Below, piece by piece: positions 1-9,574 of a stretch of DNA of 9,574 bases (position 1 is its first letter; each line of letters begins with the position of its first letter). Source of the DNA: a virus (taxonomy: Duplodnaviria; Heunggongvirae; Uroviricota; Caudoviricetes); IMG/VR virus record IMGVR_UViG_2671180432_000011; one strand, 5' to 3'. The notes under the pieces are model-generated. The model was given only the letters and a program-made list of their open reading frames with translations. It searched no databases and was not told the origin of the DNA. A program made the translations under genes and the position numbers.

Positions 1-74
1 CCTCAAAAACACCATCATACACTAAATCAGTAAGTTGGCAGCATCACCCCGCCACAGAACAATTATTGCTTTTG

Positions 75-91
75 CCGTTGATGACAATAAA
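75..91. repeat. Left copy of the imperfect direct repeat flanking the restriction-modification cassette
   Basis: CCGTT-G-ATGACAATAAA matches 3179-3194 at 16 of 17 positions with a 1-nt indel. Confidence 0.35.
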
Positions 92-200
92 GTTTTTATC
101 GCAGGCGTATACCACGGTGGGCAAATCTATGAAACCGATTTTTTATCCAGTGCACCGTAAAACCCCCATCCTTCAGGGCGTGGCGGATATCAAACTTTGG

Positions 201-1283
201 TCATTTTCTCTGGCTGATCTTTACCGGATAACCATCCCGAAGATCAATTAAGTGCTCCGGTTCAGAAGCAAACCATGCATAAGATCCCCACGCCAATTCT
301 GGTATTGCCTTTTTAAAAGGCAGAGCACTTCTGTCCATAAATGCCGTAAGGAATGCAAGATTTTTCTCGCTGAACCCAGCGTCAATAGCCAAATGAGTGA
401 GAGTAACTTTTCGTTCCCTGTTTATAGGCCCATCTGTCGCAACTACTTCAGTGAAAACTACAAGCATGTCCGAACCCGTTCGGTCCTCTCCCAAATCAAT
501 CAAAATAATATCTGGAAGTGCTTTTGAGGCATCAATATTCAGCCCCAATGCTTTTGCCAATACATCATCCTGAGCAACAACTTTATTCCCGGATTCAGAC
601 AACCAGAGCACAGTTGGATTCTTAAGAAAATTAGGAGCAAAAACTTCGATGACGGCCTTAGCTATTGTACTTGACGGGCCCGGAGCTAAAGTTCTCTTCT
701 CTCCATTTGGGAAAGTGACGACTACGGCATCAGCAGCAATCACTGCCCCTGATTTCAATAAACGCAACCTAGCAAGAGCGGCTTTGTTCAAATGATTTTC
801 TTGCCAGGAACTTATTGCACTCAGCAGCGAATCTCCTTCAAGCCCGGCATCAAAGAGTGCTGCAAAAGAGCGATTCAAACTGTAACGAGGACGAGAGGAT
901 GTGGTGGGTATACCTTTACGCTCAACAATTGCATTGCAAGGTATTAGGCCATTTTTTATAGTTTCATCACGTATTGGCTCACGCGTATTTTCCGCATACC
1001 ATGCATCAGCAGGCCTTATCTTTTGTTTAGAGAAAGTCATCTTTACCCAGCTTTCTCTGGACGCATCATCAGTAAGAGCAGCCTGCGAATCTCCCATACT
1101 TACAACCTGGCTGGGCCTTATCCATCGCCCCAGCCCCTCAACCGCACCAGCATAAAACATGACAAAAATTGTTTTTGCAGCTATTTCCCGAATTAAATAT
1201 CCACGATTCTCAGTCCCTTCAGGGAAAATTAATTGTAATCTTTCCCGGATAACATTCAATGGGGGAACAACAGGCAGATTCAT
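201..1283 (-). CDS. Candidate Type II restriction endonuclease, 360 aa, partner of the upstream methyltransferase; family unassigned (BsuBI/PstI-like is a hypothesis only)
   Basis: Uninterrupted 360-codon ORF. Its ATG (1283-1281) overlaps the methyltransferase TGA stop (1282-1280) as ATGA, implying translational coupling. GGAG lies about 10 nt upstream inside the methyltransferase 3' end. Possible PD-(D/E)xK-like stretch 'LPDIILIDLGED...VVFTEVV'. No Walker or methyltransferase motifs. The nuclease function is inferred from context, not shown. Confidence 0.5.
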   Translation of the reverse strand: MNLPVVPPLNVIRERLQLIFPEGTENRGYLIREIAAKTIFVMFYAGAVEGLGRWIRPSQVVSMGDSQAALTDDASRESWVKMTFSKQKIRPADAWYAENTREPIRDETIKNGLIPCNAIVERKGIPTTSSRPRYSLNRSFAALFDAGLEGDSLLSAISSWQENHLNKAALARLRLLKSGAVIAADAVVVTFPNGEKRTLAPGPSSTIAKAVIEVFAPNFLKNPTVLWLSESGNKVVAQDDVLAKALGLNIDASKALPDIILIDLGEDRTGSDMLVVFTEVVATDGPINRERKVTLTHLAIDAGFSEKNLAFLTAFMDRSALPFKKAIPELAWGSYAWFASEPEHLIDLRDGYPVKISQRK

Positions 1284-3112
1284 GCAATCATCACTCCATA
1301 GAAACCAGCGATAGTTCTCTCAATAATCCGTCTGTGGACGCCAGCATCAATTAACGATTGAATCTCCATCACCTGCTCCAGAGAAGGCAACGGGATTGAA
1401 TTCAATTCATAGGCCGAAACAGCAACACTTCCGCTTATACACCTGAACGCCCGATCGACAACATGCGAATTAAGTAGCATATCAATAACATCAGGGCGAA
1501 CCGCAGAGAACAATCCGTTTGAATATACAATATTAATATGGTTTTCAACTACTACGCCACCAGTTTCATCTATAAATCCCTGAGGTAAAATTGCCGCTAA
1601 AATCCTTCTGTCCTGTTCCTTCGATGTTGTCCGCTGAACAAGCACACATTCAGATTTTGTCACAAGGAAACCCTGTTGTGGGGTTATATCGATATAGGGA
1701 ACATGATTTTTTCTGTCTGCACTAAAACGAAAACCAGCTGAAGTTATTGATTCCGCCCAGACTAATGGGTAGCTATTTTTTCCTTTCGTCGTACGCAACT
1801 GCGACTTAAATCGATTCCAGACTAACTGACCTGTAGAGACTGAGTATCCCAGATCAGCTAAACGCGTAGACATCTGTTTTAATACATTAAGAAAACAGGC
1901 ATCATCTTTAACGCGTGGCAAAAGCCACGTTGCTCCACCTTTTTCTATATCAACATTACCTATTTTCTCAATTTTTGCTTTGTTCAACCCCTTAGGGACA
2001 AGTGAGGATACCTGGGCCCGAACTTTATGTTCTCCCGCCTTGAATGCTGTCAACATTGTTTCCTGGAGAACATCGTCAAAGACCCCATCCCTGTCAGTGA
2101 CGAAATCAAGGGCATACGGAGTAGTTTTTTCGGTCAAAAGGGTTCGCAGCGCGGTGAAATACTGCCCACCAAGAAAAGAAGTTGGCGTAAGAAATGCAAT
2201 AACTCCTGTTTTCTCTTTAACCATGCGAACAGCTAAGTCGGTGAACAATCCATATAGATTTGCATGACCAAATAACGAACGAGAATATTTTTCTCTCGTT
2301 TTAATATCGAGAGTGACACGTCCGTAAGGCGGATTCCCTACCACAAGATCATAACCAGAAAATTTATCTTGCTGAAGCGCATCAGCAACAATAATTGTAT
2401 CTTCAGGCAATCTACGTTTTACCTTTACACATAGTGGCATTAGTACAGATTCGAGCAATACCAAACTCATCCAAGCCGCAAATGGATCGATCTCTATCCC
2501 CTTTAAACGACGACTGATTCTCCTCAACATCCATTCAGGGGAAGACCCCTTGTCTTTTTTTAACATTCGAATGGCTACTGGTGCCAAAAATGCACCGCCA
2601 CCACACGCAGGATCAATAACCGATGCATGAGAAAAATCAACACCAGACTTTTCAGCCAGGTCCAAGAGACGCGCTACCAAAGGTGGGGGGGTATAGTAAG
2701 CCCCCAATTCCGAACGGTAAGCGGATGGCAGCATTACCGTATAAATTGACCCAATCAGATATCCAGCGTCCTCCGCCGGAAATTGAGCAATAAGCTCACC
2801 TGTTCGTTCAGCGAGCTCGCGTGCATCACATGGAATGTCTTCTATGTAAACAGTGTGCGGTACTGCCCTCATTTTAATGCTGCTTTTTTGCTTTTTTGCA
2901 AGGGTATCCCAATATGCAGCTACGATGCTGAAGCAGTATGAGCGGGCATGCATCAACCTTGACTGCCCGGTTTTGTAATTGCCCGCATAACCTTTGGCCA
3001 TGGCTTTACAAGTTTGATATCTTTCCAGATTAGAAAACTCATTATCTGTAAAAAAATCAAAATGTTGCACATTCATAATGTAAAATCCTAATGTATCAAA
3101 CATGCGGGCCAT
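1280..3112 (-). CDS. N6-adenine DNA methyltransferase, gamma class (Eco57I/TaqI-like motif order), 610 aa
   Basis: AdoMet-binding motif I 'VIDPACGGGAFL' is followed about 90 aa later by catalytic motif IV 'VVGNPPYG'; this order is diagnostic of gamma-class amino-methyltransferases. A C-terminal region of about 280 aa after NPPY is the likely target-recognition domain. The start is uncertain: ATG at 3112, 3103 or 3076, the last with AGGA upstream. Confidence 0.85.
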   Translation of the reverse strand: MARMFDTLGFYIMNVQHFDFFTDNEFSNLERYQTCKAMAKGYAGNYKTGQSRLMHARSYCFSIVAAYWDTLAKKQKSSIKMRAVPHTVYIEDIPCDARELAERTGELIAQFPAEDAGYLIGSIYTVMLPSAYRSELGAYYTPPPLVARLLDLAEKSGVDFSHASVIDPACGGGAFLAPVAIRMLKKDKGSSPEWMLRRISRRLKGIEIDPFAAWMSLVLLESVLMPLCVKVKRRLPEDTIIVADALQQDKFSGYDLVVGNPPYGRVTLDIKTREKYSRSLFGHANLYGLFTDLAVRMVKEKTGVIAFLTPTSFLGGQYFTALRTLLTEKTTPYALDFVTDRDGVFDDVLQETMLTAFKAGEHKVRAQVSSLVPKGLNKAKIEKIGNVDIEKGGATWLLPRVKDDACFLNVLKQMSTRLADLGYSVSTGQLVWNRFKSQLRTTKGKNSYPLVWAESITSAGFRFSADRKNHVPYIDITPQQGFLVTKSECVLVQRTTSKEQDRRILAAILPQGFIDETGGVVVENHINIVYSNGLFSAVRPDVIDMLLNSHVVDRAFRCISGSVAVSAYELNSIPLPSLEQVMEIQSLIDAGVHRRIIERTIAGFYGVMIA

Positions 3113-3178
3113 AACATCTCATGGTGGCGCATAGCAAACTGGCCCGAAGAATATCACGCACCAAGTCGATCTCATAAC

Positions 3179-3194
3179 CCGTTATGACAATAAA
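3179..3194. repeat. Right copy of the imperfect direct repeat flanking the restriction-modification cassette; overlaps a 16-bp palindrome TCATAAC-CC-GTTATGA (3172-3187)
   Basis: CCGTTATGACAATAAA. Lies in the 214-bp intergenic region between the phage zinc-ribbon gene and the methyltransferase start. Confidence 0.35.
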
Positions 3195-3326
3195 TCTTTG
3201 TAGCTGAACTCACTTGGTGATTTGTCAATCATTCCTGGCCTCCAGTTCGTCCTGAATCTCTTTATCGAGTTCACCGTATTTGTTAGTCCTCATCACTCAC
3301 GACTTGACTTCCAGAAATAACCTTGA

Positions 3327-3683
3327 TTATTCGGGGCTATATTTTGTCACCCTGCGTATCCGCGCTTTCGCATTACGCTCAATCTGGATTAGCTTTTCTA
3401 TATTTTTTCGCCTTTCCCGCTCCTCCTGGCGCAAGAGCCTTACATCATCTGCCAGTCTGGTTTCTCTTTTCGCCACAGAGAGCATCCAGTCAAATGGCTC
3501 CACAACTGCACCGCAAATTTTACAGCGGACCTGACGCTCTTTTTCGTCAACCCGGACAGAAGCGTGATGGCAATATGGTCTTTCCGATGGCTCATAAAGA
3601 AAATTAACCTGATTACGAGGGTTATCCTCTTTTACCGGAAATAAAACAATATTGCTTAACTCATCTTCTGGTTTTATTTCCAT
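3327..3683 (-). CDS. Hypothetical phage protein, 118 aa, zinc-ribbon-like (C-H-H...C-x2-C) N-terminal half and charged coiled-coil-like C-terminal half
   Basis: ATG at 3683 is preceded by a strong RBS, AAAGGAGAGGAGC. The ORF-track start at 3740 has no RBS and would abut the upstream stop. Motif 'YCHHASVRVDEKERQVRCKICG'; tail 'RLLRQEERERRKNIEKLIQIERNAKARIRR'. Confidence 0.55.
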   Translation of the reverse strand: MEIKPEDELSNIVLFPVKEDNPRNQVNFLYEPSERPYCHHASVRVDEKERQVRCKICGAVVEPFDWMLSVAKRETRLADDVRLLRQEERERRKNIEKLIQIERNAKARIRRVTKYSPE

Positions 3684-3740
3684 GCTCCTCTCCTTTGATG
3701 CGAATGCCAGCGGTAATTGAAGCCTGATAGCTAATTTCAC

Positions 3741-3886
3741 TCACAGTACCGCCTCCTGAAAATCACCCTGATAGAAAGCCGGTACACGCTGCATAACTTC
3801 ACTCTTCCGGCACTCGCGACAGATTATGTTCTGATGTCTGTCGTAGCGGCGTATTTCTCCGTCCGGTAATGACCAGATAAGGTCCG
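3741..3886 (-). CDS. 3' portion of a small hypothetical protein with a CxxC motif; 5' part hidden in the N-run
   Basis: The frame is open across all visible bases to a TGA at 3743-3741: '...DLIWSLPDGEIRRYDRHQNIICRECRKSEVMQRVPAFYQGDFQEAVL'. The position is nin-region-like. Confidence 0.35.
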
Positions 3887-4136
3887 NNNNNNNNNNNNNN
3901 NNNNNNNNNNNNNNNNNNNNNNNNNNNNNNNNNNNNNNNNNNNNNNNNNNNNNNNNNNNNNNNNNNNNNNNNNNNNNNNNNNNNNNNNNNNNNNNNNNNN
4001 NNNNNNNNNNNNNNNNNNNNNNNNNNNNNNNNNNNNNNNNNNNNNNNNNNNNNNNNNNNNNNNNNNNNNNNNNNNNNNNNNNNNNNNNNNNNNNNNNNNN
4101 NNNNNNNNNNNNNNNNNNNNNNNNNNNNNNNNNNNN

Positions 4137-4168
4137 TCCCGCTCTTCCTGTGTAAATACTTTTGCCAT
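4137..4168 (-). CDS. 5' end of a small hypothetical gene (MAKVFTQEER...) running into the N-run
   Basis: ATG at 4168 with a G-rich RBS (GGGGGCGCTT) about 5 nt upstream, 15 nt after the stop of the preceding gene. Its frame differs from the 3741-3886 fragment, so this is probably a separate small gene. Confidence 0.3.
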
Positions 4169-4183
4169 AAGCGCCCCCGGCAA

Positions 4184-4909
4184 TCACTTTTCCGACACAA
4201 TACGACCGGAGGAATCGACAATCTGTCGAACAATATCCCGGTGCTTGTTCAGCTCCCGCAACGCGGCGCAGACACGCTCCCACTTCTGGACATGACTTTT
4301 CGCCCGACGCAGTTCGCGGTTTGCCATATGCAGCGATGGTAAAACCAGGTCATCCGCTTGCGTTTCGGTGAACGATGGCAACGACTGCACAATGTCCGCC
4401 ACAGTTTCTGTTTTAATTTCTTCCTGTGTTGCAGCTTCCTGTACCGGTAACGCAACACCTGCTGGCTGAGGAAAGACTTTACCATCCGTTTCCGCTATGG
4501 ATGCGGCTTTCGGCTCTGCCGGTAAATCAGCGCCCGGTATGCAGTACCGAAATTTACCGCCCTGATTCACGCGAATCAGACGCCCTTTGCTGATTGCCAT
4601 GGCCAGCGATGAATTCGCCCGGCGGGAGGTAATCCCGAACATCAGTGCCAGCTCATCCGCCGTTTGTGGGCCATGTTGTTCAATCGCCTCAGTCAGCATT
4701 TGCGCTGTCACTTTCGGTACCGGTGACACTGGTTCACTTTCACCAGCCTGAATCAGCCACCACATCGAACCCTTGTTATCCGCTTCACCACGGCGCTTCA
4801 GTTTCCACAGTTCGTTGACCGCATCTTCACGGCTGATTCCAAGGCGGGACGCCACCACATGTGAAGAGGCTCTTTTCAGTGCTTTCAGTGCGTCAAATAC
4901 AGTTTCCAT
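4184..4909 (-). CDS. Conserved lambdoid-prophage protein with two winged-helix-like segments (DUF1627-like, tentative)
   Basis: ATG at 4909 is preceded by GGAGG at an 8-nt spacing, 19 nt after the DnaC-like stop; the ORF-track start at 4927 is a TTG. Segments '[20 protein letters not shown]' and '[21 protein letters not shown]' resemble HTH/winged-helix recognition regions. The family name is from memory, not a search. Confidence 0.55.
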
Positions 4910-4930
4910 TAAAACATCCTCCAACAAAAA

Positions 4931-5438
4931 TTACTTCACAACTCCCGGAAAGCTGACATTTGAACGCCAGCTATCCCAGTTAAACGTCACCCACCGACAA
5001 CCGTTCATGGTCATGCGGTCCATAATCCTCTCACCAAGAAGCGTGCTCATTGCGGCATGATTCAGGTTTGTTAACATCCCGACACTGCACAGTGATGCTG
5101 TCCGGCGATCAATTATCTGGTGCAATACCACCTGCTCGTTTTTCGTCTCCCGCTGAATGCCTATTTCATCCAGGACCAGCAAATCAACCCCGCAAAGCTC
5201 CTGTAAAAATTTTTCACCGGATTTGCCGTTGTCGTAGCTGTCATGCAACACGCTCATGACATCAGACTCGGTGACGATAATCACGCTGCGCCCCTTCGCC
5301 ATCAGCCGGTTACCCATCGCCGCTGCAAGGTGATTTTTCCCGGTGCCGGTTTTACCGCTGAACACAAAATTCGTGCACCCGGTCATCAGTTCGTCAGCTA
5401 TGGATTTGGCCTGGCTCAGCGCGTATTTTTGCCCGTCG
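4931..5438 (-). CDS. DnaC-like AAA+ helicase loader (replication protein), C-terminal about 169 aa visible; N-terminus masked
   Basis: Walker A 'FSGKTGTGKNHLAAAMG' and Walker B 'VDLLVLDEIG'. I checked that the frame stays open upstream of the track start at 5386 as far as the mask ('...DGQKYALSQAKSIADEL-MTGCTNF...'). Confidence 0.85.
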
Positions 5439-5688
5439 NNNNNNNNNNNNNNNNNNNNNNNNNNNNNNNNNNNNNNNNNNNNNNNNNNNNNNNNNNNNNN
5501 NNNNNNNNNNNNNNNNNNNNNNNNNNNNNNNNNNNNNNNNNNNNNNNNNNNNNNNNNNNNNNNNNNNNNNNNNNNNNNNNNNNNNNNNNNNNNNNNNNNN
5601 NNNNNNNNNNNNNNNNNNNNNNNNNNNNNNNNNNNNNNNNNNNNNNNNNNNNNNNNNNNNNNNNNNNNNNNNNNNNNNNNNNNNNNNN

Positions 5689-6660
5689 GGGGTTTTCAAA
5701 ATTCCGGTCCGGCCCAAAAAACGTCGTCGCTCGCTGAACAAATTCCGTTCCCGCTTTCCCGGTCGCCGCCAGGTATCTCGCGTAACGCCTCACACCATCC
5801 AGCATGGTCTCTGGTGGCCCCCCCTCGCGCAATCTGGCCTTCCAGGCACTGAATGCGGATTTCTTCGGGTTTGCCCCGGCACGCAACGGGTATTCCCGCC
5901 AGACCTGTTCGAACACATCCGGATAATCCACTCGTCCCACAGGCTGCCCGGTGTTTTCCGGGGCTACCCGATCGGCTTCCCGCTGAATGGCGGAATCGGC
6001 TTCAGGCTGCTGCAGTTGGAGTGATTGCTCCGGCCTTGCGGTCATCACCTGCTGCACAGCGCCCGAATCGGCTTTCAGCGCATACGCTGAATCGGCTTCC
6101 GGTGTCGAGCCTGCTGGCTGACCAGGATTGACGGTCTGAACATCCCCTGCCTGGTTCGTGGCGTTTTTTACGCCATGGACCATAGTGTTTTGATCTTCTT
6201 TATCTGTATCTTTATCTGTATCTGTCGTGACTCGTCGTGACATGTGCGTGACATTTCGTGACGCGCCGTGACAATCGCCATTTTGTTCCCGCTTTCTTTC
6301 CCTCTCTCGCTGCGCCCTCTTGCGCTCTGCAGGAGATTTTGCGGTTTGCGAAATATTGCCGTTGTCCTCTTTAAGCACCTGGCGTTTTTCCCATCCAGTG
6401 ATTAAATCACCATCAAGTACCCGCCCCTGCATCGTCTGCAAAATTGAATCAATTACCTCTTCTGTCACGTCGAGCGCACTTGCCAAATCTTCTGTCGTGA
6501 CATCAATGTGACCTCGCGTGACATTTCGTGACGCGCTCACCAGGAGGTGGATATACACTGCCATCACTGTTGCAATTGGCTGCCCTGACACCCTGGCAAT
6601 TGTTCGCCACTTAGGGTCATTTGGCATGTCATGCCATAATCTGAGCCAGGCGTTAGCCAT
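5689..6660 (-). CDS. Putative replication initiation protein (lambda-O position; possibly YdaU-like), N-terminal about 324 aa visible; 3' end masked
   Basis: ATG at 6660 with RBS GAGGTG 4 nt upstream. It sits between the CII-position gene and the DnaC-like gene. Phased iteron-like CGTGAC repeats lie inside it. Low-complexity linker 'TDTDKDTDKED'. Confidence 0.6.
6221..6272. repeat. Iteron-like array A: five CGTGAC hexamers phased at 10-11 bp (starts 6226, 6236, 6247, 6257, 6267), inside the initiator gene
   Basis: Read directly. Includes the 21-bp unit GCGTGACATTTCGTGACGCGC at 6246-6266, which recurs exactly at 6516-6536. A 12-bp tandem (ATCTGTATCTTT / ATCTGTATCTGT, 6202-6225) lies immediately upstream. 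Confidence 0.5.
6491..6540. repeat. Iteron-like array B: CGTGAC/TGTGAC hexamers phased at 10-11 bp (starts 6496, 6507, 6517, 6527), plus an inverted copy GTCACG at 6464-6469
   Basis: Read directly. Contains the second exact copy of the 21-bp unit at 6516-6536. Confidence 0.5.
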
Positions 6661-6731
6661 ACTCACCTCTTCTGATACCGAATCTTTTTACTCACGAGTT
6701 GCCGGGAGCGATTCGATATGGCTATTGTCAG

Positions 6732-7017
6732 TCAATGTACTGCCACAGCATTTCCTGCCGGGCCACCACGGTTCATCTGATTGAAACCGGCGATTGCCAC
6801 TGCGACAAAATCATCAGCGTCTCTCACCAGTCGTTCATGCGTCTCCACCAGTTCCCGAAAATAAGCTGAACTGTGGCTGCGCATTCGAGCCACCAGCGGA
6901 GGTGGCATTGCCCTTTCGATCGCAGGTAACAACGCCTGAATTTTTTCAACAGCGTCAGGGGTGTCTTTATCCAGCCAACGGAAAATCTTTTGGGTGTTGA
7001 GATAAAGCGTGTTGTGC
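6732..7017 (-). CDS. C-terminal 95 aa of a CII-position regulatory protein (YdaT-like by position); N-terminus masked
   Basis: Open frame ending at a TGA at 6734-6732: '...AIERAMPPPLVARMRSHSSAYFRELVETHERLVRDADDFVAVAIAGFNQMNRGGPAGNAVAVH'. It sits between the Cro-like gene and the initiator. The identity is positional inference. Confidence 0.4.
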
Positions 7018-7278
7018 NNNNNNNNNNNNNNNNNNNNNNNNNNNNNNNNNNNNNNNNNNNNNNNNNNNNNNNNNNNNNNNNNNNNNNNNNNNNNNNNNNN
7101 NNNNNNNNNNNNNNNNNNNNNNNNNNNNNNNNNNNNNNNNNNNNNNNNNNNNNNNNNNNNNNNNNNNNNNNNNNNNNNNNNNNNNNNNNNNNNNNNNNNN
7201 NNNNNNNNNNNNNNNNNNNNNNNNNNNNNNNNNNNNNNNNNNNNNNNNNNNNNNNNNNNNNNNNNNNNNNNNNNNNNN

Positions 7279-7419
7279 ACACCAACGTAATATTTTTTCT
7301 CCTGTAAGTTTTGCACGCCCCGTTATAACGTGGCTGACCATCCCTTGGGATGCGCCAACAATCTCAGCAAATGAACTCTGGGTTATATGAAAATGATGCA
7401 AATATTCTCCAAGATTCAT
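7279..7419 (-). CDS. Cro-like HTH regulator (YdaS-like by position), N-terminal 47 aa visible; 3' end masked
   Basis: ATG at 7419 with upstream GGGCGGA. HTH 'ITQSSFAEIVGASQGMVSHVITGRAKLTGEKIL'. Divergent from the repressor gene across an operator-bearing intergenic region. Confidence 0.55.
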
Positions 7420-7530
7420 AATCCGCCCTATGTGATGTGTTACCAATGCATAATTAATAGCACTGTTATTTTTAAAAGTAAATAGTGATACTATTTCAAA
7501 GTGATTAGCAATCTTATTAGAATTGGATGT
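7420..7530. promoter_or_regulatory. Divergent promoter/operator region between the Cro-like gene and the repressor gene
   Basis: AT-rich. Plus-strand extended -10 'TGaTACTAT' (7486-7494) for the repressor operon. Candidate minus-strand promoter: -35 TTTACT (7482-7477), 17-nt spacer, -10 TATTAA (7459-7454). Both overlap operator half-sites. Promoter calls are by eye. Confidence 0.45.
7481..7495. promoter_or_regulatory. Operator-like palindrome AATAGT-GAT-ACTATT; a further half-site AATAGC at 7456-7461
   Basis: Perfect 6-bp inverted arms with a 3-bp GAT spacer. Near-identical to the palindrome at 8592-8606. Confidence 0.45.
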
Positions 7531-8031
7531 ATGAAAAGAAAATCATTGTCAGACACCGACCTCAACGCCGCCAGAAGACTGAAAGAAATCTGGATGGCAA
7601 AGAAATCTCAGTTGGGATTGACTCAGGAACGTGCGGCGGAAATTATGGGGTTTTCAACACAAGGGGCGGTAAGTCACTACCTAAATGGTCAAACCCCACT
7701 AAACCTTGAGGCTGTTCTAAAGTTTGCTGGCTTACTGAAAGTTCCCCCTGAGTCAATCAGGCCAGACATGGTAGATTTGCTGCAAATTGCAAGGATGTAT
7801 TGTCGAGAACCACAGCAAGATAACATAGTCGCATTACCAGCAGACACAGAACAAACAGAGGATGAACTACCGTTTGCCGTAGAGCCGATGGAACGAGATT
7901 TAATCCATACGTTCAGAGCTTTTCCGAAAGAAGATCAAGAACACATGCTTCAGGAGATGAAAGATAAAAAAGAATCAATGGATCGTACGGTTGCGCGGTG
8001 GTTAGCTGCACAAAAAGGCCGTCGCGCCTAA
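7531..8031 (+). CDS. paaR: PaaR-like HTH transcriptional regulator (phage-repressor-type N-terminal XRE/cI HTH; no LexA-like S24 peptidase domain), 166 aa
   Basis: ATG at 7531 (the track's GTG at 7501 is less likely). HTH 'LTQERAAEIMGFSTQGAVSHYLNGQ'. First gene of a three-gene operon with the antitoxin and ParE. The symbol is assigned from operon architecture. Confidence 0.7.
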   Translation: MKRKSLSDTDLNAARRLKEIWMAKKSQLGLTQERAAEIMGFSTQGAVSHYLNGQTPLNLEAVLKFAGLLKVPPESIRPDMVDLLQIARMYCREPQQDNIVALPADTEQTEDELPFAVEPMERDLIHTFRAFPKEDQEHMLQEMKDKKESMDRTVARWLAAQKGRRA

Positions 8032-8050
8032 ATCAGAGGAGATATGTAAA

Positions 8051-8245
8051 ATGAGTACAGTCCTTTCCCCAATGGTTTCAGAATTTGAGACAGTTGAGCA
8101 AGAAAATAGTTACAACGAATGGCTGCGGGCCAAAGTAGCAGCAAGCCTCGCGGATCCCCGCCCGGCGATTCCGCATGATGAGGTAATGGCGGAAATGGAA
8201 CAAATTATTGCCCAAATTGCTGCTGCAACTCACAGAGGTGAATAA
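8051..8245 (+). CDS. paaA: PaaA-like antitoxin of a ParE-family toxin, 64 aa
   Basis: RBS AGGAG at 8036-8040. The sequence 'LSPMVSEFETVEQENSYNEWLRAKVAASLADPRPAIPHDEV' closely resembles PaaA2 as I recall it. The stop overlaps the toxin start (TAATG). Confidence 0.7.
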   Translation: MSTVLSPMVSEFETVEQENSYNEWLRAKVAASLADPRPAIPHDEVMAEMEQIIAQIAAATHRGE

Positions 8246-8535
8246 TGTTACCCGTTTTATGGCTACCATCTGCTCGTGATGATTTGCGCCAGATCGTAGC
8301 CTACATAGCTAAAGAAAATCCCGCGGCAGCACGCAGAATGAAAATTCGAATTGAAACATCCGTTTTGCCGCTCACAGAGCATCCTTACCTGTATCCTCCA
8401 AGCGAGCGAGTTCTTGGTCTTCGTGAAATTGTAACTCATCCTAACTACATCATCCTTTACCGAGTAACAGCATCAAGCATAGAAGTAGTAAATATTGTGC
8501 ATTCTCGAAGACAGTATCCAGGCAAAAACAGTTAA
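8245..8535 (+). CDS. parE: ParE-family toxin (RelE/ParE superfamily), 96 aa
   Basis: ParE signatures 'LWLPSARDDLRQIVAYIAKENPAAA' and 'REIVTHPNYIILYRV...IEVVNIVHSRRQYP'. 1-nt start/stop overlap with the antitoxin gene. Confidence 0.85.
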   Translation: MLPVLWLPSARDDLRQIVAYIAKENPAAARRMKIRIETSVLPLTEHPYLYPPSERVLGLREIVTHPNYIILYRVTASSIEVVNIVHSRRQYPGKNS

Positions 8536-8551
8536 TTATTCCCGCCGACAG

Positions 8552-8577
8552 AACCACCTTAGGGTGGTTTTTTCTTG
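8552..8577 (+). terminator. Rho-independent terminator of the paaR-paaA-parE operon
   Basis: Stem AACCACC (8552-8558), loop TTAG, stem GGTGGTT (8563-8569), then a T-tract TTTTTTCTT, starting 17 nt after the parE stop. Confidence 0.6.
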
Positions 8578-8591
8578 CCCCAACAAAAAAC

Positions 8592-8606
8592 AATAGCGAT
8601 GCTATT
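8592..8606. promoter_or_regulatory. Second operator-like palindrome AATAGC-GAT-GCTATT, embedded in a 10-bp inverted repeat (AAACAATAGC 8588-8597 / GCTATTGTTT 8628-8637); GATGCTATT repeats at 8625-8633
   Basis: Read directly. Same AATAGY-GAT-RCTATT architecture as 7481-7495. Confidence 0.45.
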
Positions 8607-8814
8607 TACATCAAAAAAAATAATGATGCTATTGTTTCAGGCGTCAACCCACCCCGCCCCACAGAATGCAGGGCAATACTTCGAGTTACCAGACAGTGGT
8701 CAGGGGTTAAGTAGCCAGCCCGAGGCGTAAGAACATGACGGCAGGGTTCAATCTTTAACTATGCAGCAGGTTTTTTGTTCCGCCACCCCGGCGTTAAGGG
8801 GAAATGAGGTCAGC

Positions 8815-8967
8815 ATGGATACTATCGATCTTGGCAACAACGAATCTCTGGTGTGCGGCGTGTTCCCTAACCAGGATGGAACGTTTACCGCCATGACGTA
8901 TACCAAAAGCAAAACGTTTAAAACCGAATCTGGCGCGCGTTGCTGGTTAGCCAGAAACACTGACTGA
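8815..8967 (+). CDS. Small hypothetical protein, 50 aa (MDTIDLGNNESLVCGVFPNQDG...)
   Basis: ATG at 8815 with GAGG 5 nt upstream. The track's longer start at 8761 lacks an RBS. The position matches small early-leftward prophage genes. Confidence 0.4.
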   Translation: MDTIDLGNNESLVCGVFPNQDGTFTAMTYTKSKTFKTESGARCWLARNTD

Positions 8968-9344
8968 TGAGGCTGACGATGGAATTTAAAGATTTACCGT
9001 CTGATGTACAGAAAACAGCAGCTCATACATTGCATTCTGTGCTGCGAGAAATCGGGAAAGATATTGCAAGCGAGCCAGCAAAAGATCTGGCCCGGAAAAT
9101 CAAGACCGCTTTCGTTGAGCTTTATAATGTTGGCACTGACTCTGAAACTGTCGAGACCAAGACCGTAAGTTCACCAATATTCTCACTTGAGCCAAGCGTA
9201 TTATCAGGTGAAATATGCACCGAGATTTCCAGCGAACTGCTTCCGGTAATACGAGAAGCAATTCGCCGTCGCGGTTTGGATGGAAGTTATGATCATGACG
9301 TTCTGCAAGTTCTCAGGACAATGGTGACTTCACTGGGGATTTGA
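8967..9344 (+). CDS. Hypothetical protein, about 121-125 aa
   Basis: ATG at 8967 overlaps the upstream TGA (TGATG); an alternative ATG at 8979 has GAGG at a 6-nt spacing. No motif recognised. Confidence 0.55.
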   Translation: MRLTMEFKDLPSDVQKTAAHTLHSVLREIGKDIASEPAKDLARKIKTAFVELYNVGTDSETVETKTVSSPIFSLEPSVLSGEICTEISSELLPVIREAIRRRGLDGSYDHDVLQVLRTMVTSLGI

Positions 9345-9574
9345 TCCCTGCGTCCTCTAAGCTTTTGATATAGCGGTCCTCCAAGAAGCGGTAAATTTTG
9401 TCGAAATCATCTTTTCCCTCTGGTTTATTCAGAGGATTACAGGACCCGTAAGTAGCGGCATACATTTCAACCGTTTGGTAATGACTCCAACTTATTGATA
9501 GTGTTTTATGTTCAGATAATGCCCGATGACTTTGTCATGCAGCTCCACCGATTTTGAGAACGACAGCGACTTCC

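Follow-up and report, generated by a model that had tools for sequence, protein, structure and literature searches.

The two adjacent genes studied here constitute an ordinary restriction-modification (R-M) system that is already known and annotated. By analogy with characterised relatives they very probably form an active, classical two-gene Type II system of the PstI/BsuBI/SdaI family, organised as a prophage cassette in which the methyltransferase gene (M) precedes the endonuclease gene (R). The cassette is located in a window of 9,574 nucleotides, which is the whole stretch of DNA that was analysed (IMG/VR record IMGVR_UViG_2671180432_000011), and the carrier is a decayed lambda-like (lambdoid) prophage, almost certainly of Shigella sonnei. 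RefSeq already names the two proteins as BsuBI/PstI family endonuclease (WP_001053102.1) and methyltransferase (WP_000113425.1). What can be added is that the near-uniform single Type II R-M system of S. sonnei corresponds to a PstI/BsuBI-family cassette in an IS1-damaged lambdoid prophage, and that the same cassette moves between chromosomal defence islands and the accessory slots that lambdoid and P2-like prophages offer. Beyond such bookkeeping its importance is small.

A previous sequence-only reading of this DNA had described two ORFs, of 610 and 360 aa and joined by an ATGA overlap, without giving their strand. Both are present, on the minus strand, and the overlap was confirmed by direct reading, M ending in '...ATT GCA TGA' and R starting with 'ATG AAT CTG'. 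The features of the pair are:

1280-3112, minus strand: methyltransferase gene M, 610-aa ORF if read from its first ATG, or 598 aa should translation begin at Met13.
201-1283, minus strand: endonuclease gene R, ORF of 360 aa.
1280-1283, minus strand: ATGA stop/start overlap of M and R, read directly from the sequence.
3113-3326, minus strand: intergenic region of 214 nt upstream of M, the only place for a cassette-specific promoter.

The length of 610 aa holds for the longest ORF, but the gene calls of the Kluyvera and Serratia homologues start at the position that corresponds to Met13, which would give 598 aa; the corresponding ATG is found at 3076 with an AGGA 9 nt upstream. We infer from the ATGA overlap that translation of R is coupled to that of M. 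The arrangement is widely shared: M is adjacent to and upstream of R, in the same order, in 76/80 genomes sampled from Alpha-, Beta- and Gammaproteobacteria, the methyltransferase match stopping 0-78 nt ahead of the nuclease match in these 76 loci.

The 360-aa protein had been proposed to be the cognate restriction endonuclease, and this is borne out by Pfam, by PADLOC, by likeness to SdaI in both sequence and fold, and by the adjacency of M and R. A profile search against Pfam identified both BsuBI/PstI domains, BsuBI_PstI_RE_N (PF17728; E-value 1.2e-30, 106.6 bits, profile positions 2-136 of 140) and BsuBI_PstI_RE (PF06616; 9.3e-45, 152.2 bits, positions 2-152 of 154), far over their gathering cut-offs of 27 bits. 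The PADLOC model REase_II matches over the full length (2.8e-128). As had been noted before, the protein lacks a recognisable methyltransferase or ATPase motif, and the Pfam scan showed no such hit. To our knowledge SdaI is the only member of the BsuBI/PstI family with a solved structure. In the sequence search of the PDB only its entry 2ixs matched significantly (1.8e-16), and 2ixs was also the one Foldseek PDB match below 1e-3 (E=1.1e-12, probability 1.00), the latter obtained with a model of medium confidence (pLDDT 71.8) that has a TM-score to SdaI of 0.37-0.41. The endonuclease is divided as follows:

Residues about 10-172: N-terminal wHTH-type DNA-binding domain, as indicated by PF17728 and the likeness to SdaI.
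Residues about 188-349: C-terminal PD-(D/E)XK-type catalytic domain, with P257-D258 and E279.

An alignment of 14 homologues, including the copy in the window, has 118 invariant columns, and the latter retains every residue that is invariant in the 13 others, with which it shares 63-89% identity. P257-D258 and E279 are invariant in these 14 subfamily members and align with D233 and E248 of SdaI and with the PD...E of EcoGIII. The motif YAxN(S/T)RExxR of the N domain is common to the endonuclease, SdaI and the biochemically active R.EcoGIII. The column of SdaI's K251 is occupied by Ala282, and by Ala across the whole subfamily, and conserved candidates for the catalytic lysine are K254 and K292. 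We dropped the idea of a dead nuclease based on Ala282, since the residue is subfamily-invariant and the active R.EcoGIII has Thr at the same position; Ala in this column is therefore not a sign of inactivity.

The sequence-only reading had also left room for an uncharacterised methyltransferase-linked defence pair lacking a PD-(D/E)XK nuclease. This alternative is refuted, since PF06616 belongs to the PD-(D/E)XK superfamily (PMC3424549). A broader form of it, in which the 360-aa protein is not a nuclease and the pair represents either an uncharacterised defence system or a fragment of a BREX, MADS or Type IIG system, is hardly credible. It could draw on NCBIfam hits that the methyltransferase gives with PglX and MAD2 models, but these reach only 16-37 bits where the cut-offs are 400-900, and they span just the shared catalytic core. 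Both BsuBI/PstI nuclease domains, the PADLOC models and the SdaI matches by sequence and fold speak against it, as does the neighbourhood: the pair is flanked by phage backbone genes and has no further defence genes next to it, and the two-gene unit recurs alone in many contexts.

The assignment of the larger protein as a gamma-class N6-adenine methyltransferase stands, with motifs I and IV intact and Pfam matches to Eco57I (1.7e-13) and N6_Mtase (2.1e-9). Residues 139-142 read YYTP, 167-175 form motif I (DPACGGGAF) and 260-263 form motif IV (NPPY), which leaves ~350 residues C-terminal to these elements; motif order and C-terminal remainder together correspond to the gamma-class order. PADLOC's MTase_II model PDLC03338 matches full length (1.8e-300, residues 7-608) and the best solved relative in the PDB is M.TaqI. 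The protein is ~100 aa longer than EcoGIII-type methyltransferases and has an N-terminal extension (~97 aa) that is clade-specific. No Pfam match was obtained for the N-terminal 141 aa at E-values up to 10.

How the operon would be transcribed was explored by a simple consensus scan, from which weak or non-canonical signals escape. Neither a sigma-70 promoter nor an intrinsic terminator of the minus-strand operon was found. In the 214 nt upstream of M no promoter reached 9/12 matches or more; the region has a perfect TTGACA at about 3229-3224 that is not accompanied by an acceptable -10 partner. As no operon promoter or terminator was detected, expression in the lysogen is a presumption. The scan result could be taken to favour a reading in which the nuclease is inactive or unexpressed and the locus is a solitary methyltransferase with a mainly epigenetic effect on gene expression, as has been reported of M.EcoGIII in E. 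coli O104:H4. Prophage decay, with IS1 truncating the neighbouring parE, points in the same direction, as do at least one Stx phage, namely ArgO145, in which an EcoGIII-type R is frameshifted and M intact, and the ~1,900 genes affected by EcoGIII methylation (PMC6602927). Against this, R is full length and 100% identical to the copy of E. coli FDAARGOS_943 (GCF_016026335.1), it keeps 118/118 invariant columns including PD258 and E279, the intact identical sequence occurs on at least 1,000 contigs, and R appears translationally coupled to M. We therefore consider an inactive or unexpressed nuclease quite improbable.

The immediate surroundings of the pair were compared by blastn with L002, a syntenic prophage without R-M genes. 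The window aligns at 49-146 and again at 3323-3884, so that the flanks end at 146, in parE, and resume at 3323, at a 137-aa backbone gene; in L002 the interval holds three small unrelated genes. This context comprises:

1-48: IS1 end.
49-160, plus strand: what is left of a parE toxin gene at its 3' end, matching a RelE/ParE toxin gene in loci L001 and L002; downstream backbone flank, truncated by IS1 and convergent with R.
147-3322, no strand assigned: variable cassette extent, from the blastn comparison with L002.
3327-3740: ORF of 137 aa with a Zn-ribbon, conserved backbone, between the ATPase gene and the methyltransferase.
Masked ORF, between the ATPase gene and the methyltransferase.
4184-4927: DUF1627 ORF, between the ATPase gene and the methyltransferase.

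The cassette comes last on the replication-gene strand, ahead of a ParDE/nin-type region, with two ParE-type toxin-antitoxin loci beside it. An earlier description of the pair as lying immediately downstream of the replication module is right as to downstream but not as to immediately, since three ORFs separate the methyltransferase gene from the DnaC/IstB-like ATPase gene (4931-5386). The 137-aa Zn-ribbon ORF was considered as a controller protein and rejected, because it is present in prophages without the cassette. The pair was also said to be AT-richer than the phage backbone. Its GC content of 0.436 is indeed lower than the 0.515 of 3327-7446, but 3327-3740 has 0.449 and 7447-9574 has 0.448; the contrast is limited to the replication genes, as both the adjacent backbone gene and the immunity side are low in GC. 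The term moron fits in so far as the cassette is present or absent between syntenic prophages with conserved flanks, but in the strict sense it is unproven since no promoter or terminator of the cassette was found. The more general proposal of a prophage-borne defence cassette is supported by the R-M domains and by the presence/absence polymorphism in a lambdoid accessory slot.

At least 1,000 contigs, for the most part from S. sonnei, encode identical proteins, and a PADLOC survey of 994 S. sonnei genomes counted 982 Type II systems, about one per genome (PMC13293514). Because S. sonnei is a clone of recent origin, the fact that its isolates share the sequence says little about selection. Related cassettes occur in comparable places. 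Those of Kluyvera and Citrobacter, 86-89% identical, follow the replication genes of lambdoid prophages and thus occupy the same slot, whereas in Serratia a 75%-identical cassette separates gpA from the portal gene in a P2-like prophage, the gpA-gpQ interval being a defence hotspot defined in PMC9122126. Nor are such cassettes confined to prophages, since they occur in a Klebsiella defence island and on a Burkholderia chromosome as well, which argues that the cassette is not phage-specific.

The PstI/BsuBI-family assignment suggests how the system would work. The methyltransferase would transfer the methyl group of SAM to N6 of an adenine in each strand of a short palindrome. The N-terminal winged-helix domain of the nuclease would bind the same palindrome and its C-terminal PD-(D/E)XK-type domain, with D258 and E279, would cut it when unmethylated. 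With the ATGA overlap, translation of R would depend on and follow that of M, so that, we propose, a new host would be methylated before it can be cut. The expected outcome is that unmodified phage and plasmid DNA is restricted on entry, and in S. sonnei the pair likely hinders both transformation and infection by phages.

It is established that Type II R-M systems cause post-segregational killing. Loss of the cassette would have the same consequence here, which would help the prophage remnant to persist. This raises the question whether an active R-M system could have been selected here chiefly as a selfish addiction module, stabilising the prophage remnant, rather than for host defence. Such a role would agree with the retention of the cassette in essentially all S. 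sonnei genomes despite the IS-disrupted prophage, its rarity in E. coli (2/5,426 complete genomes) and the two adjoining ParE-type toxin-antitoxin loci, which likewise serve stabilisation. The uniform presence in S. sonnei may, however, reflect recent clonal descent, and homologous cassettes sit in recognised anti-phage hotspots. As the same biochemistry yields both addiction and defence, the former does not exclude the latter, and we regard addiction as the chief role as rather unlikely.

With respect to the recognition site, the characterised family members known to us all have a CTGCAG core: PstI, BsuBI and EcoGIII recognise CTGCAG and SdaI recognises CCTGCAGG. By this analogy our best guess, at roughly even odds, is CTGCAG or a related site with a TGCA core. 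The specificity is not transferable from EcoGIII since identity is only 25-26%. The cassette has no CTGCAG where ~0.7 is expected, the window has two, and the carrier prophage has nine against 10.4 expected. Pooled over 80 host loci the observed/expected ratio of CTGCAG is 0.90, rank 44/64, which amounts to no special avoidance. The most depleted site in these loci is CTCGAG (observed/expected 0.43). As palindromes are depleted in general and the comparison has no taxon-matched control, we regard site avoidance as uninformative on the specificity. A literature search returned no report on recognition site or activity for the enzyme, the subfamily or the S. sonnei system, and a Burkholderia cepacia complex methylome preprint has no mention of CTGCAG, PstI or BsuBI. 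We tentatively envisage, as a possible but doubtful combination, that the subfamily with R of ~360 aa and M of ~600 aa, which includes the near-universal S. sonnei system, recognises a site other than CTGCAG or CCTGCAGG, that the N-terminal extension of M has a separate role, for example in operon autoregulation replacing a C protein, and that the methylation is a lineage-wide epigenetic mark of S. sonnei, EcoGIII-like as in O104:H4. Existing long-read methylation data should reveal the site, and knowing it would help strain engineering and the design of phage therapy.

Among the systems with which the pair can be compared, BREX, MADS and Type IIG do not fit, given that the methyltransferase is far under the NCBIfam cut-offs and that its only neighbours are phage backbone. 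PstI and BsuBI, which recognise CTGCAG, are the founders of PF06616 and PF17728. At the level of Pfam domains, at which the comparison was made, the endonuclease resembles them end to end. SdaI shares the plan of an N-terminal winged helix and a C-terminal PD-(D/E)XK-type domain; its D233 and E248 correspond to D258 and E279, and the YAxx(S/T)RExxR motif is also aligned. It differs by an overall identity of ~21% and by having K251 in place of Ala282. EcoGIII is the nearest analogue that has been studied. PMC6602927 and PMC3893438, with reference to Fang et al. 2012, describe it as a PstI-like R-M system of Stx2 prophages that methylates CTGC(m6A)G, cleaves CTGCAG and confers resistance to lambda-like phages. 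Its carriers include Stx2a prophages of E. coli O104:H4, O145:H28 and O111:H-. The proteins are homologous (E=4e-22 for R, 7e-27 for M) and both systems are lambdoid accessory cargo with the order M then R and a 4-nt stop/start overlap. Identity is nevertheless 26% for R and 25% for M, whereas published EcoGIII homologues are ~99% identical, and the proteins differ in size, M having 610 aa here against 489 aa and R 360 aa against 317 aa. EcoGIII immediately follows cI and shares its strand (in ArgO145 the order is cI, M, R), whereas the present pair lies past the replication genes, ~4.4 kb away from the repressor gene and on the other strand. We rejected the identification of the pair with EcoGIII itself because of the 25-26% identity, the other position in the phage and the lack, by megablast, of any phage record carrying the pair. 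Homologous cassettes also sit among the defence cargo of temperate-phage hotspots, namely P2 gpA-gpQ and the lambdoid slots.

The window belongs to a lambdoid prophage, in which the minus-strand order is cro/YdaT-type region, replisome organiser, IstB/DnaC-like ATPase, DUF1627, Zn-ribbon ORF, methyltransferase gene (M) and endonuclease gene (R). The features are, by position:

1-48, IS1 end, terminal inverted repeat
49-160, parE 3' remnant (last 112 nt), downstream of R and convergent with it
201..1283, minus strand, R, ORF of 360 aa
1280..3112, minus strand, M, ORF of 610 aa
3327-3740, minus strand, Zn-ribbon ORF
4184-4927, minus strand, DUF1627
4931-5386, minus strand, IstB/DnaC-like replication ATPase
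5416-6666, minus strand, replisome organiser
7501-8031, plus strand, HTH repressor of 176 aa with an HTH_3 domain, the putative prophage repressor
8051-8535, plus strand, intact PaaA2/ParE pair adjoining the repressor gene

No S24 peptidase domain was detectable in the 176-aa putative repressor, and the 125-aa ORF at 8967-9344 (plus strand) had no Pfam match. The PaaA2-type antitoxin (64 aa, 3e-23) and ParE toxin (96 aa, 1.8e-17) genes overlap by one base. At the other end the window starts inside IS1, whose insertion truncates the parE toxin gene; the matching ParD antitoxin gene, as in intact relatives (14538-14795 of the related prophage locus L001), would lie past IS1. Masked N runs at 3887-4136 (250 nt), 5439-5688 (250 nt) and 7018-7278 (261 nt) break the DUF977/DUF1627-region ORF, the replisome-organiser/ATPase junction and the cro/YdaT-type region, and gene calls are incomplete there.

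R is a BsuBI/PstI-type endonuclease. Profile search matched both halves of this family, PF17728 (1.2e-30) and PF06616 (9.3e-45). Both matches span almost the whole profile and far exceed the gathering score, and the PADLOC REase_II model matches full-length (2.8e-128). SdaI (2ixs) was the only chain matched in a sequence search of the PDB (1.8e-16) and the sole significant match in a fold search with an AlphaFold2 model of R (pLDDT 71.8; E=1.1e-12, probability 1.00). Together with its linkage to M, this supports the proposal of the sequence-only reading that the 360-aa ORF is the cognate restriction endonuclease. Its alternative, an uncharacterised methyltransferase-linked defence pair without a PD-(D/E)xK nuclease, is refuted, since PF06616 is included in the PD-(D/E)XK superfamily (PMC3424549). 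Residues D258 (of PD) and E279 of R align with D233 and E248 of SdaI. The column of SdaI K251 holds Ala in all 14 aligned subfamily members, R included, and Thr in R.EcoGIII, for which biochemical activity has been reported in the literature; for these reasons we do not read the Ala as a defect.

M bears the intact motifs YYTP (139-142), DPACGGGAF (motif I, 167-175) and NPPY (motif IV, 260-263) followed by some 350 C-terminal residues, an order that identifies a gamma-class enzyme. Pfam matches are Eco57I (1.7e-13) and N6_Mtase (2.1e-9), the best solved relative is M.TaqI, and the PADLOC MTase_II model matches full-length (1.8e-300). The stop of M and the start of R share ATGA at 1280-1283; the sequence there reads '...ATT GCA TGA' and 'ATG AAT CTG'. 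Both ORFs, their overlap and the gamma-class N6-adenine assignment are thus as first described. The start of M is ambiguous (3076-3112, minus strand): 610 aa are given in RefSeq and by the longest ORF, while the equivalent of Met13 (598 aa) is the called start in Kluyvera and Serratia homologues and in some S. sonnei records. AGGA lies 9 nt upstream of Met13, which may be the true start. Gamma- and betaproteobacterial homologues conserve residues 1-97 (2822-3112, minus strand), which the alphaproteobacterial homologues and M.EcoGIII lack; a Pfam scan of this extension with the E limit raised to 10 matched no model. An operon-regulatory role for it is conceivable.

Across 80 Alpha-, Beta- and Gammaproteobacteria genomes encoding a relative of R at 47-70% identity, the relative of M ends 0-78 nt upstream of it on the same strand in 76. 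M-then-R is a conserved, co-inherited operon.

Compared with syntenic prophages, the shared flanks stop at 146 and restart at 3323, and three small unrelated genes occupy the interval there. Homologous cassettes occupy the same slot of lambdoid prophages in Kluyvera (R identity 89%) and Citrobacter (86%; L089, a Citrobacter sedlakii prophage), and are found in a Serratia P2-like prophage between gpA and the portal gene (75%), in a Klebsiella defence island with an IS3 element and HNH/ScoMcrA-type genes (72%) and in plain chromosomal context in Burkholderia (68%). The gpA-gpQ region of P2 has been described as a defence hotspot (PMC9122126), and a homologous cassette there supports mobile defence cargo. 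The Klebsiella pneumoniae island (L090, 848-11876) holds its M-R cassette near a 1,287-aa DUF4365 protein and an IS3-family transposase, with two ScoMcrA/HNH-type (Type IV restriction-like) genes, and looks like a defence island. Directly downstream of the Citrobacter cassette (L089, 9451-11277) lie genes for a RecA-like protein (369 aa) and a LexA DNA-binding domain protein (133 aa). The stretch 141-193, from parE stop to R stop, has an 89%-identical counterpart at 1476-1527 of L002, a prophage without the system, with the holin gene on one side of it and tRNA genes on the other; the stretch may represent a module, intergenic or terminator, that recurs where mosaic segments join.

The presence or absence of the cassette in the lambdoid slot agrees with the suggested prophage moron, but in the strict transcriptional sense this status is unproven because neither a promoter nor a terminator was found for the cassette itself. 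The pair does lie downstream of the replication module, though not immediately, three ORFs separating it from the DnaC/IstB-like ATPase gene. It is likewise AT-richer (GC 0.436) than the replication genes (0.515) but hardly so against the adjacent backbone gene (0.449) or immunity side (0.448).

From its family, M would m6A-methylate a short palindrome, which the N-terminal winged-helix domain of R would recognise and its PD-(D/E)XK-type domain would cleave when unmethylated. Through the ATGA overlap, translation of R would be coupled to, and follow, that of M. The outcome would be restriction of incoming DNA and post-segregational stabilisation of the prophage remnant.

To our knowledge a CTGCAG core is common to all characterised relatives of R. 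Since R also shares the N-domain motif YAxN(S/T)RExxR with SdaI and EcoGIII, analogy favours a CTGCAG-like site; no assignment for R or M was found in the accessible literature. Site avoidance was uninformative as a proxy for specificity. Pooled over the 80 host loci (1.32 Mb, carrier loci alone) and counted without a control set, no other hexamer palindrome comes near the depletion of CTCGAG (279 observed, 648 expected; below expectation in 72 loci and above in 5), and CTGCAG is barely depleted (O/E 0.90).

At least 1,000 contigs, overwhelmingly from Shigella sonnei, encode proteins identical to M and R, and among 5,426 complete E. coli genomes only 2 carry the pair. In E. coli FDAARGOS_943 it lies between the replication module and ParDE/DUF968/RusA/Q, annotated in RefSeq as 'BsuBI/PstI family type II restriction endonuclease' and SAM-dependent methyltransferase. 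Among 994 S. sonnei genomes a PADLOC survey counted 982 Type II systems, and it calls the species 'highly uniform' in R-M content (PMC13293514); the locus is not named there, and these systems are most simply the one described here. The pair belongs to a long-known R-M family, is correctly named in RefSeq, has full-length models in a standard defence-finder database and is probably included in the counts of published surveys.

The closest point of comparison is the PstI-like system EcoGIII, carried by Stx2 prophages, which is described (PMC6602927 and PMC3893438, citing Fang et al. 2012) as methylating and cutting CTGCAG, restricting lambda-like phages and altering expression of about 1,900 genes. 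The Stx phage ArgO145 (L003, 4824-5778) has an intact M gene along with an EcoGIII-type R gene whose annotation marks a frameshift and in-frame stops; it exemplifies the decay of a prophage-borne R-M system to a solitary methyltransferase. M and R are homologous to their EcoGIII counterparts, with identical gene order and 4-nt overlap, but are only 25% (M) and 26% (R) identical to them in sequence, and EcoGIII adjoins cI whereas the present pair lies beyond the replication genes. These identities and the different phage location rule out an EcoGIII orthologue; judged by sequence, M and R represent a separate subfamily within that family.
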